Part shown: in pieces, positions 1,950 to 9,465 of the stretch
Layout: each line of letters begins with the position of its first letter
Position numbering within the stretch: the first letter of the stretch is position 1
The notes under the pieces: generated by a model
The model's database searches: none
Seen by the model: the letters and a program-made list of their open reading frames with translations, nothing else
What the model was told of the DNA's origin: nothing
Origin: a virus
Direction: 5' to 3' (one strand)
DNA: 10,543 nucleotides
UHGV virus genome: UHGV-0380619
Made by a program: the position numbers and the translations under genes

Positions 1950-1955
1950 GCATGT

Positions 1956-1985
1956 AAAAAGGCCCCAACACATGTGCGTGGGGCC
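1956..1985 (-). terminator. Minus-strand intrinsic terminator upstream of the holin gene
   Basis: Hairpin GGCCCCA...TGGGGCC at 1961-1985. On the minus strand it is followed by UUUUU (plus-strand A run at 1956-1960). Confidence 0.5.
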
Positions 1986-2185
1986 TGAGAGTATACATGG
2001 TTTCAGTCAACTGCATGGTGCCGGGTGCCTCCCGGTGAATTCAGTACCAGCACCTGAATCCGCGATTATCCCATATACCTACTCGCTGATTGCCCATCCG
2101 CACAGGGGGATTCACCATGCCAGTTTCTTTTAACAAACTCCCCGCAAAACAGACAACTGTCAACCGTCTGAATTGTGAGACATTT

Positions 2186-2225: not shown

Positions 2226-2302
2226 TGGCGCGTTGTACTGGATTCGAACCAGTGACCGATTGCTTAGAAGGCAATTGCTCTGTCCGGTTGAGCTAACAAC
2301 GC
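2226..2302 (-). tRNA. tRNA-Arg (anticodon UCU)
   Basis: Reverse complement folds as a cloverleaf: acceptor GCGTTGT/ACAACGC, anticodon stem ATTGC/GCAAT with loop CTTCTAA (anticodon TCT), T-arm ACTGG-TTCGAAT-CCAGT, 3' GCCA. Confidence 0.9.
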
Positions 2303-2315
2303 AGGGTACAGATAA

Positions 2316-2392
2316 TGGACCGCCATCGAGGACTCGAACCCCGCGCAACCAGCTTCGAAGGCTGGTGCTCTATCCTGATGAGCTAATGGCGG
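2316..2392 (-). tRNA. tRNA-Arg (anticodon UCG)
   Basis: Reverse complement: acceptor CCGCCAT/ATGGCGG, D-arm GCTC..GAGC, anticodon stem CCAGC/GCTGG with loop CTTCGAA (anticodon TCG), T-loop TTCGAGT, 3' TCCA. Confidence 0.85.
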
Positions 2393-2399
2393 TATGTGA

Positions 2400-2475
2400 T
2401 GGTGGCCCTTGCTGGATTTGAACCAGCGACCTGGCGATTATGAGTCGCTCGCTCTCACCACTGAGCTAAAGGGCC
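2400..2475 (-). tRNA. tRNA-Ile2 (anticodon CAU, lysidine type; alternatively tRNA-Met)
   Basis: Reverse complement GGCCCTTTAGCTCAGTGGTGAGAGCGAGCGACTCATAATCGCCAGGTCGCTGGTTCAAATCCAGCAAGGGCCACCA: anticodon loop CTCATAA, T-arm GCTGG-TTCAAAT-CCAGC. Closely resembles E. coli ileX as recalled. Confidence 0.85.
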
Positions 2476-2945: not shown

Positions 2946-3326
2946 TTACTTTTTTAGCAGCCAGTCGTCCATCTCCAGTCTTACCCCCAGCACAGACAAA
3001 CATCCGTCAATAAACCCTTCGGCTATCTGCATCTCAATTCGTATTGCTTTTTCGCTTTTCTTTCTCGTCCTGGCTATCTGTCTTTTTGATATTCGCAACA
3101 AATAATGAGCAATGAGAAGCGAATACTCCTCAGGTTTTTTCTGCTTCAGACGAGCAAGACAGTTTTCAATGATAAGTCCGTCATCATCGCAGCAGGCCGG
3201 ACGTGGTTTAGTGGCAGATGGTAAAAGTCCTTTGAATCCGGCAGCGATCGGAGAATAGTCCACCCCGGTGTTACCACTTGCAGCCCATGCCCCCCAGCGT
3301 TCAAGAACCATCTGAATATCACGCAT
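2946..3326 (-). CDS. Q: Late-gene antiterminator Q (phage 82/21 / QuuD-like family)
   Basis: ATG at 3326 (MRDIQMVLERWGAWAA...) preceded by GGAGAAAG; the track's upstream start at 3341 is TTG. Cys-rich motif ACCDDDGLIIENC. Position immediately upstream of the tR'-like terminator and late region. Confidence 0.8.
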   Translation of the reverse strand: MRDIQMVLERWGAWAASGNTGVDYSPIAAGFKGLLPSATKPRPACCDDDGLIIENCLARLKQKKPEEYSLLIAHYLLRISKRQIARTRKKSEKAIRIEMQIAEGFIDGCLSVLGVRLEMDDWLLKK

Positions 3327-3343
3327 CAACTTTCTCCACAAAA

Positions 3344-6405: not shown

Positions 6406-7347
6406 TCACCCCCTGAATCCTTCCGGGATCTGGCTGTAGTCCACGTTGTCGTAACTGGCTTTGAAGTACGGGTCCTCACGTTTTTCTGTGTGCGTGCTGA
6501 CGGACGGCGATAAGCGCAGGGAAAGCTCATCCCATTTTTCCCGCAACTTCGACGGGCTGAGCACGTTACGGCACCAGAACGGATCACGGCTGACGCGGCT
6601 GTACATCTCGCAGATTTGTTTGTGAGTACGACCATCCTGCACACACATCAGGCGAATTTCGTTTGCCCATGCTGTCCAGTTCGGTTCTTTGGGACGAACC
6701 ACCTCGCCGTCACATTCGGCGGCCTGCTCGTACAGGGCGATGATTTTTTTCCAGAGCCACTGTGCGCAGGTCAAATCATCCTGCGTTCCCCACTGGCGCT
6801 TTTTAGGGCTGAATACAACCGCATCAGGATGGCGAGTTAAAAAATCCTGTTCAGCCGTCTGCGTGTCCGGTTGCAAAGCGTCCGGACGAGAAGGTTTTTT
6901 ATCTGACGGATCATGTTTTGATTTTACTGACGGATCCCCGCCAGATTCTGACGGGTGAAAACACGCTTTTTTGCCAGATTTCGACGCATCAAATTTTGAC
7001 GGGTCAGATTTTGATGCGTCAGATTTTGACGGGTCAGAATCTGACAGTTGAGAAAATGCCGCAGCCTGAAGCTTCGCAACGTTAAGCTGATAAACATTCG
7101 ACGCATTGCGGTTACCCTGGCGACGCGCCTTACGCGTTAACCAGCCTTCTGCTTCCAGCCGTGCGATAGCCGTTCTGACGGTACTCATCCCCGCGCCAAT
7201 CTGGCGGGCAATGGTTTCAATTGATGGCCAGCACACACCCTCGTCATTACTGAAATCAGCCAGACGGGCCATAATTGCCACACTGGATAATTTCATGCCT
7301 GACGCTGCGCAACCATCCCATACATAGCCGGTTAATTTGGTGCTCAC
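6406..7347 (-). CDS. Replication initiator (lambda O-like; HTH replisome-organiser N-domain with low-complexity linker)
   Basis: GTG start at 7347 preceded by a strong SD AAGGAGGTG with an in-frame TAA immediately upstream. N-terminal HTH region (LTGYVWDGCAASGMKLSSVAIMARLADFSNDEGVCWPSIETIARQ). Central pentapeptide repeats (SDPSK/SDASK) encoded by iterons. Confidence 0.8.
   Translation of the reverse strand: MSTKLTGYVWDGCAASGMKLSSVAIMARLADFSNDEGVCWPSIETIARQIGAGMSTVRTAIARLEAEGWLTRKARRQGNRNASNVYQLNVAKLQAAAFSQLSDSDPSKSDASKSDPSKFDASKSGKKACFHPSESGGDPSVKSKHDPSDKKPSRPDALQPDTQTAEQDFLTRHPDAVVFSPKKRQWGTQDDLTCAQWLWKKIIALYEQAAECDGEVVRPKEPNWTAWANEIRLMCVQDGRTHKQICEMYSRVSRDPFWCRNVLSPSKLREKWDELSLRLSPSVSTHTEKREDPYFKASYDNVDYSQIPEGFRG
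6901..7048. repeat. Origin-like iteron array inside the O-like gene (about 8 copies, consensus AGATTTTGACGGGTC, 15-bp period in the core)
   Basis: Repeated TCTGACGG(G/A)TC-type units at about 6903, 6926, 6947, 6980, 6996, 7011, 7026 and 7041. Each unit contains a short inverted repeat (TCTGAC..GTCAGA). An AT-richer stretch follows at 6891-6930. Confidence 0.7.
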
Positions 7348-8201
7348 TTACGCACCTCCTTATGCTTTTCGTTCAGTTCCGAGTCCACCAGCCCGGCAAC
7401 GAATACACCATCGTTGATGTAGTCGTAGAGCGATGAAGCCAGCGGAGACTGAACTGAAACCAGCATCGGATAAAGTTGTTCTAACCAAACGCGGTGAATT
7501 TCAGCCATGTAGAGGTAAACAACGTGGGCATTGTGCGCGACACATGAAGTATCAACCTTTCCGATCAGCGCCTGTTCCATCTGGTTAAAGGCATTGATGT
7601 ATGCCTCTTTGAACTGGGCAGCACGTTTACCCGTGAAACCCATAGCAAGAAACGCAAAGCCATCGCGGGTTATTTGATAGCAAGGTAGTTTGCGAGTACC
7701 GCCGTTGGGCTGGCGTACCAAAATTGATGTCTCCGCAAAATTGCGGGCACAAAACTCTGGAGAACAATCCAAAATGCGAATCTTTTTCAGAACATCGTCA
7801 TGACGTTTAGAGAAGAAGTCAGCAACAGCCAAAGAAGATGTAACAGCCTGACCATCAACGATGGCAATTTCAGGTTGAGAGAGGGTTGGGAGAGTAGTCA
7901 TAGTGACAGCCCCGGTAGTCAGTTTTTTAGAAAACTCACCACATGGGACGCCAATCACAGAGGTGGTGAGACGTACAGGGTTGGCGTTACCGGAGACTAC
8001 CGAACCCGGCCCGACCGAAGTCGGCCCTGTACGCCCCACCATAATTTGGGCGTAGCAATGCTCATGACACGAAAAAACCGCATGAGCGCGGTTATGCTCA
8101 GTAATCAATTTCAGGACGCCAATCCCGGCAACGGATTTTGCCGCTGCCAGAACAATATAACGCCCAGAATTATCAGAATCAATCATTACTGGTTTGCTCA
8201 T
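7344..8201 (-). CDS. Rha-family phage regulatory protein with an unassigned ~100-aa N-terminal extension
   Basis: Rha-like core from about residue 101 (MTTLPTLSQPEIAIVDGQAVTSSLAVADFFSKRHDDVLKKIRILD...). ATG at 8201 preceded by AAGGGA; alternative internal start ATG at 7901. The N-terminal 100 aa have coding-like codon usage. Stop overlaps the O-like GTG start. Confidence 0.65.
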   Translation of the reverse strand: MSKPVMIDSDNSGRYIVLAAAKSVAGIGVLKLITEHNRAHAVFSCHEHCYAQIMVGRTGPTSVGPGSVVSGNANPVRLTTSVIGVPCGEFSKKLTTGAVTMTTLPTLSQPEIAIVDGQAVTSSLAVADFFSKRHDDVLKKIRILDCSPEFCARNFAETSILVRQPNGGTRKLPCYQITRDGFAFLAMGFTGKRAAQFKEAYINAFNQMEQALIGKVDTSCVAHNAHVVYLYMAEIHRVWLEQLYPMLVSVQSPLASSLYDYINDGVFVAGLVDSELNEKHKEVRK

Positions 8202-8210
8202 GATCGTCCC

Positions 8211-8549
8211 TTATCTCCCTGAACTTTTGCCTGAAATGCTCAAGCGGGCTGAAGCATTCATGTTCATAGCCTTCACGGAGGTAGATAACCCGTTGTGTTT
8301 CCGGCTCCCAACGAATGACTCTGACGGGCACTCCGTAGTGATCTTTGAACCAGCGGTTAACTTGTCGCAAAGGACTGTCTCCTTCTGCCGGTTGAAATCC
8401 CCCACAGCCCACTCTGCAAAGCAGTGGGTTACAATTTCCCTGTCACCTGGTACATTCACTGCATAGCAATACTCCACCTTCGCTTTTCCACCCGGTACAG
8501 GAAGCGCAATCAGTTGCGAGCGACGGTAGTGTGTTGTTAAACTGTTCAT
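8211..8549 (-). CDS. Hypothetical protein (112 aa), translationally coupled to the upstream gene
   Basis: ATG at 8549 overlaps the upstream stop (ATGA) and is preceded by GGAGAAA. It overlaps in a different frame with a second protein-like ORF at 8179-8412, so the assignment is ambiguous. Confidence 0.4.
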
Positions 8550-9187
8550 GCGTTAGTTTCTCCACAACCAGAAGCAATCGACGCCACGACGCCCGGAGCT
8601 GCACACTCGCGGGCGTTACTCTTTTCCGGCGCACAAAAAACACGAAATAACAGTGTTAAATGCTCCTGCCACTTCGCCATTACTTGGTAGCTGTTCTCTT
8701 CGATTTGCTCACGCTCAGCTTGGTCAATAACTCCATCAGCAGTTGCCTTGCGTAAGTACTGGGAATGCTTGCCAATCCATTCTATTGACTCCATCAGCCG
8801 CTGATTAATGTCACCATTGTCAATGTCATCAATGACCACCAGCGGCACAAACACCCCATTACTACGACGGGCTATTGCATCCGTTACATGCCTGGTACCA
8901 CTGGCATCCTGTAAAACCATGGCCCACTCAAGTGGAAAAATTTGATCCCCACCGCTACGCAGTCTGTTATGCAATTGATCTTTTGCTGGGGTGATATCAT
9001 CAGATTTATACAAACCAAGAATTTCTGCTGCTTCCTCATAGCCATGAGGTAAATCAGCAATCGTTCTTCGTATTGCTGCCACCAGCCATGCTGGTTGCTT
9101 ATCAACTTTCCATTCAGGTTCTTTACCCACGTTTAAGCCCTCATATCTGTGGTTTCTGTAAATCGATTTATCCATTAGATTTTTCAT
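8546..9187 (-). CDS. CII-like / YdaT-like early regulatory protein (family uncertain)
   Basis: Long ORF immediately downstream of the Cro-like gene. Start not resolved: ATG at 9187 or 9175, both with weak SD; the track start at 9244 is GTG and would overlap cro extensively. Confidence 0.5.
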
Positions 9188-9368: not shown

Positions 9369-9465
9369 ATGCCCTCCAAACTAAGTTTTATTAGATGTTA
9401 ATTATCAATCTATCTTAGGTCAATAAAAACTAAGATTACTTAGTAATTAAAGAAATGGTGCTCCT
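9369..9465. promoter_or_regulatory. Immunity-region control region: three operator-like 18-bp sites plus candidate pR (and implied pRM)
   Basis: Sites AACTAAGTTTTATTAGAT (9379-9396), AACTAAGATTACTTAGTA (9428-9445) and a weaker reverse-orientation site ACCTAAGATAGATTGATA (9403-9420), with centres 24-25 bp apart. Candidate minus-strand pR: -35 TTGACC (9418-9423), 17-bp spacer, -10 TAACAT (9395-9400). Confidence 0.55.

Follow-up and report, generated by a model that had tools for sequence, protein, structure and literature searches.

The 300 nt that separate ATG 8201 from ATG 7901 in the window (the whole analysed stretch of 10,543 nt, from virus genome UHGV-0380619) probably constitute an IsrK-C4 RNA immunity leader placed before a Rha-family gene of a lambdoid prophage, and not a protein domain. 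The leader is of the P4 seqA-CI/P1 immI type, i.e. a new example of an already known control system. The 300 nt 5' of ATG 7901 are wholly accounted for by RNA and control elements, and one long open reading frame (ORF), with its start 5' of the internal promoter, traverses the RNA leader and leads into Rha without a change of frame. The features of the locus are as follows.

8179..8370, minus strand: DUF4222 gene, upstream context (supported by Pfam and PGAP; its frame differs from that of the long ORF)
8207..8213, minus strand: stop codon TAA (8213..8211) overlapping the SD-like AAGGGA (8212..8207) (read from the sequence; ORF list)
7344..8201, minus strand: long, eta-like ORF of 285 aa (ORF list; PGAP calls the identical locus likewise)
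8154..8182, minus strand: sigma-70-type promoter TTGATT-17-TATATT, equivalent of PisrK and of P4 PLE (promoter scan; alignments)
8071..8147, minus strand: IsrK/seqA-like small RNA (Rfam isrK; terminator scan)
8052..8069, minus strand: codons for CHEHCY, in the variable spacer from the U-run of the IsrK terminator to C4
7959..8046, minus strand: C4/CI-type antisense RNA (Rfam C4, RF01695)
7910..7954, minus strand: C4 operator on the mRNA, b2 and a2 (complementarity to the C4 loops)
7820..7939, minus strand: the most C-rich, G-poor stretch of the mRNA (plus-strand GC skew of +0.23 to +0.35)
7344..7901, minus strand: nested short ORF, the Rha-family protein proper (185 aa), in a kil-like position (Phage_pRha match)

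The ORF, its starts and the RNA elements of the leader

The ORF list and the sequence bear out the initial annotation of a 285-aa ORF (8201..7344, minus strand) with a Rha-like core beginning at an internal Met: ATG 7901 is in frame and corresponds to M101, and frame 0 holds both starts. The signals claimed for the upstream start are also present, namely an SD-like AAGGGA 5 nt before ATG 8201 and, 10 nt before it, an upstream stop, the TAA that ends a same-frame ORF (8549..8211). ATG 8201 precedes the internal promoter, whose -35 element is at 8182, and is located within the 3' end of the DUF4222 gene, which overlaps it by 23 nt (DUF4222 stop at 8181..8179). Homology of the conserved leader module starts at about 8183, with the ATG 8201 region outside it, and since this ATG lies within the DUF4222 gene, its conservation is inseparable from that of DUF4222.

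The Rha domain match is confined to the short ORF. Phage_pRha (PF09669) covers aa 121-210 (nt 7841..7572) with 94.9 bits (cut-off 29.9), and TIGR02681 scores 88.8 on the Rha protein (cut-off 45.95). In a tblastn search with the 185-aa core as the query, matches begin at core residue 1, and an ATG is present there in 95 loci. ATG 7901 is conserved and aligns with the starts of P4 kil and Gifsy-1 anrP; its SD is GGGG in the window, weaker than the GGAGG of relatives. The Rha stop codon and GTG 7347, the start of an O-like replication gene, overlap.

The internal promoter lies inside the presumed protein extension, 3' of ATG 8201, with a predicted transcription start at ~8147, and aligns with the region 5' of isrK in Gifsy-1 and the region 5' of seqA in P4, read as PLE. 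The PisrK promoter of Gifsy-1 was shown to be functional by Hershko-Shalev et al. (PMC4825925). The Rfam isrK match (RF01394) scores 68.6 bits, against a gathering score of 50, and this RNA has its own promoter and an intrinsic terminator (a hairpin at 8093..8076 followed by a U-run, found by the terminator scan and aligned to Gifsy-1). It carries the decoy sites b1 (8122..8116) and a1 (8106..8096). The c4-a1b1 model (RF03163) remained just under its gathering score (44.3 versus 46.7 bits) on bases which bear the complementary sites and are also claimed by isrK. A pR-like promoter is located further upstream, at 9423..9395. Two other Rfam hits in the window, mir-5880 (6972..7046, on iterons) and Plastid-ycf2 (2402..2475, on a tRNA), were far under their gathering scores and were taken as chance matches.

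C4-class RNAs are stable, processed molecules of ~77-88 nt (RNase P processing) that repress in trans. The C4 match in the window reaches 82.3 bits (gathering score 45) and spans model positions 1-87 of 87. Its fold has a z-score of -6.0 and its 3' CACCACC motif is present; among 29 distinct sequences the three-helix structure is paired in 99.9% of cells, with double changes in 13 of 27 pairs, compared with at most 48% pairing in slid controls. An alignment of the leader would carry such RNA-stem covariation and could mislead a structure predictor. The a' loop of C4 is GUUCGGUAGUCU and the b' junction is AACGCCAA, and their targets on the mRNA are b2, TTGGCGT (7954..7948), and a2, GACTACCGGG (7920..7911), the latter overlapping the SD-like GGGG (7913..7910) of ATG 7901. 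In the window, the a'/a2 pair is GUUCGGUAGUC/GACUACCGGG.

Covariation of loops and targets was examined in 20 lineages, in 18 of which the loops could be parsed. The a', a1 and a2 sequences co-vary in nearly all of these 18 lineages, and b' and b2 in all of them; a2 is found at about -20 in 17 and at -10 in the remaining one (L006), and in most it extends into the SD. Among the 18 parsed lineages, the automated search detected a1 in 16 and b1 in 13. In the window, the complementarity search located a1 but missed b1, which was identified by visual inspection of the sequence. This three-way covariation of the C4 loops with their targets defines immunity specificities. Because diverged C4 copies were missed by blastn, a covariance model was built and used, and with it ten Rha loci without a blastn C4 match were found to carry a diverged C4. 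Downstream of the operator, the C-rich stretch (7939..7820) might act as a Rho-utilisation site, an idea that is suggestive only and is based on composition and on a position equivalent to that of P4 timm, which begins at the kil ATG (P4 timm coordinates from PMC3177188).

An open frame and an unconstrained peptide

The initial annotation had pointed out that the 100 codons upstream of the core are open, and this holds beyond chance. In 20 of 22 diverged leader clusters, no stop interrupts the Rha frame over -300..0, compared with a neutrally simulated chance of staying open of 0.04-0.26 per lineage, and frames +1 and +2 contain 34 and 35 distinct stop columns over the leader. The long frame thus appears from these comparisons to be kept open by selection, without selection on the sequence of the peptide. 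Good codon usage had also been ascribed to the 100 codons; it is only intermediate, with a per-codon log-ratio of +0.11 (about 0 over the C4 part), compared with +0.13 to +0.28 for nine of the ten training genes of the window, the tenth being DUF4222 (-0.02). Annotated long ORFs in relatives start at, or at most 4 nt from, the stop of the upstream gene in five of eight records, mostly as 4-nt overlaps; of the other three, two have longer overlaps with the upstream gene (23 and 71 nt) and one begins 2 nt after its stop. At more distant C4-Rha loci every frame of the leader is interrupted by stops, which indicates that the module does not universally need its leader to be translated. In Aeromonas, Vibrio and Endozoicomonas, stops separate the diverged C4 from the ATG of the Rha homologues, and at Rha loci without a blastn-found C4 a median of only 8 extra codons is possible. 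Very long in-frame upstream ORFs in some relatives (L016, L104, L021 and L139; up to >1400 nt) were considered as extra fused domains and rejected: the two loci examined, L016 and L104, have a gene pair on the opposite strand, to which these ORFs are antisense shadow frames, L021 carries the same insertion, and the ORFs were therefore not counted as evidence.

Constraint at the amino-acid level is a different matter. The pN/pS ratio of the leader is 0.84 in frame and 1.01 and 0.85 off-frame, versus 0.25 in the Rha core. Diversity per site at the three codon positions is.234/.259/.277 in the leader, i.e. without codon-position periodicity, and.104/.081/.280 in the core. The proposal of a novel N-terminal Cys/His domain is contradicted by these values and by the fate of its hallmark: the CHEHCY cluster is present (aa 45-50, nt 8069..8052), but relatives carry LLLQLSY, LSSAFAH, LCAMHGY, LCHEQH and other sequences at this place, and the Cys/His ligands are not conserved. 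Comparison of Rha homologues, the check suggested at the outset, likewise revealed an extension without amino-acid-level conservation, and the domain idea fails on this point.

The extension had been called unassigned, which is incorrect, as Pfam Phage_ASH (PF10554) matches aa 15-110 (51.7 bits, cut-off 26, E 1e-13) and the same DNA gives Rfam matches to C4, isrK and c4-a1b1; PGAP names relatives accordingly, after the NCBI 'ash family protein'. This match could be taken to mean that the extension is a genuine folded 'Ash' domain fused to Rha, perhaps binding metal via CHEHCY, and forming a module of Bro/Ant domain shuffling. The occurrence of the stretch before different payloads in several PHROGs, its treatment as a Bro-network domain in PMC10111431 and the open frame speak in the same direction. 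However, Phage_ASH corresponds base for base to isrK, C4 and the target region, it matches both the window extension and the P4 ORF overlying the CI RNA, and here it shows no selection at the amino-acid level; the 'family' is a conserved translation of RNA genes and not evidence for a domain. As proteins, P4 eta and the window extension have no significant similarity (E 0.58), although both DNAs match C4 and isrK strongly. Searched against PDB sequences, the 285-aa protein had chance matches only (E at least 0.12), NCBIfam had no match for the extension, and the RNA pairs and target sites explain all conservation. Together with off-frame-like pN/pS, missing periodicity and unconserved Cys/His residues, this largely refutes the folded domain, which is hardly credible any more.

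The suggestion that a separate gene had been fused to Rha by annotation comes nearer to the truth, since relatives are annotated in this way, but the long ORF is no mere artefact. In L006 the annotation of the stretch shows an 'ash family protein' of its own, coupled to Rha through ATGA, while in phage F004 it shows the ncRNAs isrK and C4, with the CDS beginning after them; the CDS in the Gifsy-1 record likewise starts after C4. Among 5426 complete E. coli genomes, 947 have a match to the leader module. The Rha core and Gifsy-1 AnrP show no similarity by BLASTP, and the leader is therefore a cassette that stands before unrelated payloads.

Comparison with the immunity regions of P4, Gifsy-1 and P1/P7

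The P1/P7 immI operon comprises the c4 RNA, the a1/b1 and a2/b2 sites, icd and ant1/ant2. Work by Citron & Schuster in 1990 and by Biere et al. in 1992 reportedly dealt with the P1/P7 c4 RNA, its targets and the anti-repressor-class payload. As in the window, immI has a C4-family RNA with two loop/junction sequences complementary to upstream and downstream sites, the downstream site covers a ribosome-binding site, and the payload is an anti-repressor-class regulator (C4 control and payload of P1/P7 immI: PMC8198154). The window differs in that it has no icd homologue, the regulated start being that of the Rha gene itself, as well as in the IsrK-type terminator between a1/b1 and C4 and in the ORF that runs through c4 in frame.

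The order of elements in the P4 immunity region (PLE, seqA, CI RNA, seqC, eta/ORF199, kil and timm) is that of the window, and the same Rfam models match (in P4, C4 at 8507..8420 and isrK at 8692..8615). In both cases a single reading frame runs through C4, the long ORF has its start 5' of the internal promoter, coupled to the stop of the upstream gene, and a nested in-frame ATG stands behind a conserved GGAGGCTGCCAT(C/T)ATG-type SD. In P4, an ATGA overlap with orf88, at 8767, provides the start of ORF199 (eta), whereas the window ORF has the 23-nt overlap with DUF4222; the ATG of the nested 65-aa kil (8365) aligns with ATG 7901. The two loci differ in their payload (a 185-aa Rha-family protein versus the 65-aa Kil) and in the host element, the window locus being part of the early-right operon of a lambdoid prophage, between DUF4222 and the O-like replication gene. 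Transcription from upstream would come from pR in the window, and it comes from PLL in P4. In P4, translation of the long ORF from the upstream promoter prevents Rho termination, the nested short ORF is under control of the CI RNA, and nonsense codons in eta cause termination (PMC10111431).

For the isrK-orf45-anrP region of Gifsy-1, translation and coupling of the leader ORF are documented, and its nucleotides, but not its amino acids, are conserved (PMC4825925), the same pattern of conservation as in the window. Both loci have the IsrK promoter, the small RNA, the terminator, a C4-like RNA (STnc1160 in Gifsy-1), a leader ORF from the C4 AUG and a downstream anti-repressor-type gene, the ATG of which aligns with 7901. 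The Gifsy-1 leader ORF is 45 aa long, lies in another frame and ends in an ATGA overlap, whereas that of the window is fused in frame and reaches 5' of the promoter; the sequences of AnrP and the Rha core are unrelated, and the Gifsy-1 locus adjoins antQ, while that of the window belongs to the replication operon.

Proposed control of the Rha gene and its meaning

By analogy with these systems, the locus may work as follows. When the internal promoter (8182..8154) alone is active, it would yield the short IsrK-like RNA and read-through transcripts, from which the C4 RNA would be processed. The a' and b' sequences of C4 would base-pair with their targets a2 and b2 (7954..7911), cover the SD of ATG 7901 and block translation of the 185-aa Rha protein, and Rho would then terminate transcription just downstream, as in P4 and P1. 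On transcripts from the upstream pR-like promoter (9423..9395), ribosomes would enter at ATG 8201, coupled to the upstream ORFs, and cross the leader in frame into Rha, bypassing C4 control and shielding the transcript from Rho. As it is the transit of ribosomes that would give this shielding, the frame has to stay open and the sequence of the peptide is irrelevant. The processing of C4, the termination by Rho and the choice of starts are modelled on the experiments with P4, P1 and Gifsy-1, and the transcription start and the use of ATG 8201 at the window locus are likewise presumed. Lambdoid N-type antitermination, if present, would lessen the need for anti-Rho translation.

Two other views concern where, and whether, the leader is translated. 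One holds that the long ORF is never translated, the sole product being the 185-aa Rha protein from 7901, and that the 285-aa call is a gene-finder artefact in a fortuitously open frame. It would fit the conserved, C4-targeted ATG 7901 with its SD, the distant loci with leader stops, the phage F004 and Gifsy-1 records and the position of the internal promoter 3' of ATG 8201; it is nevertheless unlikely, given a frame open in 20 of 22 diverged lineages with a neutral expectation of 4-26% each, the coupling of long-ORF starts to upstream stops in most annotated relatives and the published genetics of P4 eta. Somewhat less doubtful, and compatible with the IsrK-C4 leader favoured here, is initiation at the C4 AUG (8042..8040, in frame with Rha), as for orf45 of Gifsy-1, where translation from the same AUG was demonstrated by tagging and mutation (PMC4825925). 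Being in frame, such a start would yield a Rha isoform of 232 aa or would do no more than make the ribosome-binding site of Rha accessible. All 34 C4 copies have the AUG without variation, the segment from it to the Rha ATG is open in 22 of 22 clusters, and members of PHROG 4908 begin there. Against this, no SD precedes the AUG, the frame stops inside C4 in distant taxa, and the U and G of the AUG belong to the C4 outer stem, so that its invariance may be RNA-driven.

Two broader readings were also weighed and, even taken together, are quite improbable. The 300-nt leader could be truly dual-coding, in which case the 100-aa peptide of the long isoform would have a function of its own besides the IsrK-like and C4 RNAs, e.g. 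as a disordered or lineage-specific tail that changes the activity or stability of Rha at induction, with peptide selection too weak or too masked by the RNA to show in pN/pS. Alternatively, translated RNA genes could be a widespread design in Enterobacterales, with RNA genes kept open purely for ribosome transit and now mislabelled as the Ash protein family.

With the IsrK-C4 leader as the preferred explanation, a habit of annotation is corrected. RefSeq leaves the IsrK and C4 RNAs unannotated at the window locus, and what hundreds of E. coli genomes present as 'Rha family' proteins with a 100-aa N-terminus, or as separate 'ash family proteins', would be a translated RNA immunity cassette. 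For the control of induction and of the anti-repressor, the relevant components would be the C4 and IsrK RNAs and the starts at 8201 and 7901, possibly also 8042; a metal-binding domain is not involved in the control of these Rha prophages. The open frame without amino-acid constraint, in combination with the three-way covariation, lends comparative support to the P4 rule in lambdoid prophages with a Rha payload, namely that the leader has to be translatable while its peptide is irrelevant.

The extended Rha frame and the RNA genes within it

The Rha-family gene of the window is a 285-aa ORF in which ATG 7901, the start of the 185-aa core, lies in frame as residue M101, and the Pfam domain Phage_pRha (residues 121-210, TIGR02681 in agreement) falls behind this codon. 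The features reported in the initial annotation, i.e. the internal ATG, the CHEHCY cluster, the SD-like AAGGGA 5' of ATG 8201 and the stop codon 10 nt upstream of it (TAA, 8213..8211), were all found in the sequence. An Rfam scan of the window placed three RNA families inside the extension. The features of the locus are:

9423..9395, minus strand: predicted pR-like promoter
8370..8179, minus strand: DUF4222 gene (Pfam, and PGAP on the identical E. coli locus), in a frame different from that of the long ORF and overlapping ATG 8201 by 23 nt
8201..7344, minus strand: long ORF, 285 aa, start ATG 8201
8182..8154, minus strand: predicted sigma-70-type promoter TTGATT-17-TATATT, downstream of ATG 8201
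8160..8108, minus strand: c4-a1b1 (44.3 bits, below the gathering score of 46.7)
8147..8071, minus strand: isrK (68.6 bits, gathering score 50)
8093..8076, minus strand: predicted intrinsic-terminator hairpin with T-run
8069..8052, minus strand: CHEHCY, residues 45-50 (read from the sequence)
8046..7959, minus strand: C4 antisense RNA (82.3 bits, gathering score 45)
7347..7344, minus strand: overlap of the Rha stop with the GTG of the O-like replication gene immediately downstream

When the window is aligned with Gifsy-1, phage F004, mEp460, a P88-like phage and a remnant in E. coli, the promoter hexamers coincide, as do the terminator, the body of C4 and the SD-ATG that serves the next gene downstream, and in the same alignment a GATTGGCGTC-type box flanks C4 on both sides. 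The C4 fold reproduces the Rfam structure (-47.7 kcal/mol, z-score -6.0). In 34 C4 copies (29 distinct) from loci recovered via the Rha core, 99.9% of cells were paired, with both-side changes at 13 of 27 pairs, while slid controls did not exceed 48% pairing. The C4 RNA of this locus is genuine and has cognate targets.

The TAA at 8213..8211 closes a 112-aa ORF (8211..8549, minus strand) that shares the Rha frame and is parted from ATG 8201 by this single stop; its start codon overlaps, as ATGA, the stop codon (8548..8546) that ends a YmfL/cII-like gene, and it also overlaps the DUF4222 gene in another frame. In two relatives, L096 and mEp460 (L009), the equivalent frame, open all the way from where ymfL ends, joins Rha and gives ORFs of 553 and 383 aa, respectively.

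Selection on the frame and not on the peptide

The extension had been proposed to be a novel N-terminal Cys/His domain fused to Rha, or a separate gene fused by annotation. Comparison of 140 loci, collected with the 185-aa core as query, revealed that it is not a protein domain. Per-site diversity at the three codon positions was.104/.081/.280 in the Rha core and.234/.259/.277 in the leader (the 100 codons between the two ATGs), i.e. the alignment with Rha homologues showed no peptide constraint. Nei-Gojobori-type counts on 19 cluster representatives gave an in-frame pN/pS of 0.84 for the leader (off-frame 1.01 and 0.85) versus 0.25 for the core (off-frame about 1.3), and the CHEHCY residues are replaced in relatives by LLLQLS, LSSAFA, LCAMHG, LCHEQH and so on. 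A search for a PDB relative of the 285-aa protein found none. As proteins, P4 Eta and the extension share no significant similarity (E 0.58); both DNAs strongly match C4 and isrK. The codon usage of the extension, described initially as good, proved only intermediate: its log-ratio (+0.11 per codon, about 0 across the C4 part) exceeds that of the off-frames (-0.2 to -0.5) but is below that of 9 of 10 window training genes (+0.13 to +0.28; DUF4222, -0.02).

The Pfam family Phage_ASH matches aa 15-110 of the extension. In P4 it also matches the ORF once listed as "cI gene product", precisely over the Rfam C4/CI RNA, so the "Ash family" amounts to a conserved translation of the RNA genes themselves. 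The fused-gene proposal was half right, since some relatives are annotated with a separate Ash protein, but the open frame itself is under selection. Among 22 leader clusters (<92% identical to each other and 56-80% identical to the window), the Rha frame is stop-free over -300..0 in 20, the exceptions (L023 and L026) having stops solely upstream of -183, whereas frames +1 and +2 hold 34 and 35 distinct stop columns. A neutral-change simulation, weighted by observed column variability, gave a probability of 0.04-0.26 for a stop-free lineage. The open frame is hence maintained, without selection on the peptide. In five annotated relatives the beginning of the long ORF shares 4 nt with the end of the gene upstream; in two further records the overlap is 23 and 71 nt, and in one the ORF begins 2 nt beyond the upstream stop.

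The open frame does not extend to all C4-Rha loci. A covariance model detected diverged C4 copies in Aeromonas, Vibrio, Veronia, Endozoicomonas, Phlomobacter and Erwinia, at a distance of about 45-110 nt (mostly 45-80) on the upstream side of the Rha-core match. There, stops separate C4 from the Rha ATG, and this ATG is served by a strong SD of its own. In 46 Rha loci without a blastn match to C4, the median room is only 8 extra codons; 10 of these hold a diverged C4, found later with the covariance model. The short protein would therefore be the universal product, and the long in-frame ORF characterises the lambdoid and P4-like group of enterobacterial elements.

C4 target sites, distribution and neighbouring genes

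The C4 hairpin-3 loop (a') and 3' junction (b') vary among lineages. A target-site script parsed the loops in 18 of 20 lineages examined, and detected the matching complement within the upstream IsrK segment in 16/18 (a1) and 13/18 (b1), and downstream of C4 for both b2 and a2 in all 18. The position of a2 is about -20 in all of these but L006 (17 of 18; -10 in L006), and in most the site reaches into the Rha SD. In the window these sites are:

8122..8116, minus strand: b1 (read from the sequence; the script chose another site)
8106..8096, minus strand: a1 (complementarity)
7954..7948, minus strand: b2 (complementarity)
7920..7911, minus strand: a2 (complementarity)
7913..7910, minus strand: SD-like GGGG of ATG 7901, overlapped by a2

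Since loops and targets match across lineages, with a2 at the SD, there is direct comparative evidence pointing to ATG 7901 as a regulated, functional start. Many loci (within L073-L137) have a Rha core only 79-81% identical to that of the window and a 100% identical C4, which indicates that the leader cassette is exchanged in mosaic fashion, independently of its payload. At least 6 b' types and more than 10 a' types were seen, presumably representing immunity specificities.

The module is common: of 5426 complete E. coli genomes 947 match it, as do 160 phage records, homology usually starting at window position ~8183, the end of DUF4222. It is annotated as (i) a long "Rha family" CDS, (ii) an "ash family protein" of its own, followed through an ATGA junction by a short Rha, or (iii) the ncRNAs isrK and C4 with a CDS beginning afterwards. 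In the window-identical locus L001 (NZ_AP024112.1) a CDS spans C4 and isrK, and for this reason RefSeq/PGAP lists neither as an ncRNA; both RNAs are annotated in GenBank LC710661 (phage F004). An enterobacterial-type C4-Rha module (C4, 80.8 bits) on a 2.2-kb contig of the alphaproteobacterial Martelella alba assembly (L019) may be contamination.

In some prophages the C4 leader and a Rha-like gene form a unit that occurs two or three times in tandem, ~850 nt apart, each unit with its own C4 variant (L079, at 1356-1443, 2216-2301 and 3064-3148; also L003, L024, L077, L080, L087, L115 and L130). Such series resemble arrays of anti-repressor-type genes under RNA control. In Edwardsiella and others, an opposite-strand insertion just upstream of the leader (L016, 498-1185, minus strand; L104, 498-1146, minus strand; L021) encodes a ~100-aa protein with a YKY...GKGDHKH motif and an HTH protein, a putative toxin-antitoxin-like pair; the 550-620-aa ORFs joined to the Rha frame there are spurious, an antisense shadow of the insertion.

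Elsewhere in the window, a strong Rfam match to the sRNA STnc100 (1950..2149, minus strand; 133 bits, gathering score 47) lies upstream of the lysis genes and downstream of three phage-borne tRNA genes (2226..2475, minus strand; Arg(tct), Arg(tcg) and Met(cat)). The tRNA genes are themselves downstream of ORF 2946..3341, a Q-like antiterminator, an order also seen in lambdoid phages of the Stx type. Within the O-like gene, a 15-bp unit (CAGATTTTGACGGGT) repeated 4.3 times (6975..7038) looks like origin iterons and accounts for a spurious Rfam match to mir-5880.

Relation to P4 and Gifsy-1 and a proposed mechanism

In P4, as reviewed in PMC10111431 after Forti et al. 1999 and Sabbattini et al. 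1995, the CI RNA is encoded within gene eta, read-through allows translation of Kil, a truncated form nested in the gene, and eta translation prevents termination. In the P4 sequence an ORF of 199 aa (ATG 8767, ATGA overlap on orf88) runs through seqA and CI, with a nested Met at 8365 giving exactly 65 aa; the kil SD-ATG aligns with ATG 7901. The P4 Rho-dependent terminator timm extends from the kil ATG (X51522, 8365-8209; PMC3177188), and the strongest C>G skew of the window mRNA (7939..7820) is only suggestive of a counterpart. Barquist et al. 2013 equated IsrK with seqA and C4 with CI, and noted such systems in lambdoid prophages (PMC3632133). For Gifsy-1, Hershko-Shalev et al. 2016 (PMC4825925) showed translation of the leader ORF orf45 and its coupling to the anti-repressor gene that follows, with conservation of its nucleotide but not its amino-acid sequence. 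The AUG at which orf45 starts is invariant in all 34 C4 copies studied here.

The comparisons establish the RNA elements with their covariation and target sites, the selection for an open frame and the lack of constraint on the peptide; processing, Rho action and start usage we infer from P4, P1 and Gifsy-1. In the most likely mechanism, silencing of the pR-like promoter by the prophage repressor would leave the internal promoter to supply IsrK-like RNA and C4. C4 would pair with b2/a2 and occlude the SD of ATG 7901, and the untranslated message would be terminated, keeping Rha and the O-like replication gene off. Under upstream transcription, ribosomes starting at 8201 would cross the leader in frame, making expression insensitive to C4 and Rho; such read-through would explain selection for an open frame without selection on the peptide. 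A third start at the C4 AUG (8042), as in Gifsy-1, may also occur. The locus belongs with P4 eta/kil and the IsrK-C4 system of Gifsy-1; its payload is of the Rha family and its setting the early operon of a lambdoid prophage. Its main practical value lies in a corrected reading of "Ash" and long "Rha" annotations, together with start-site and RNA predictions.
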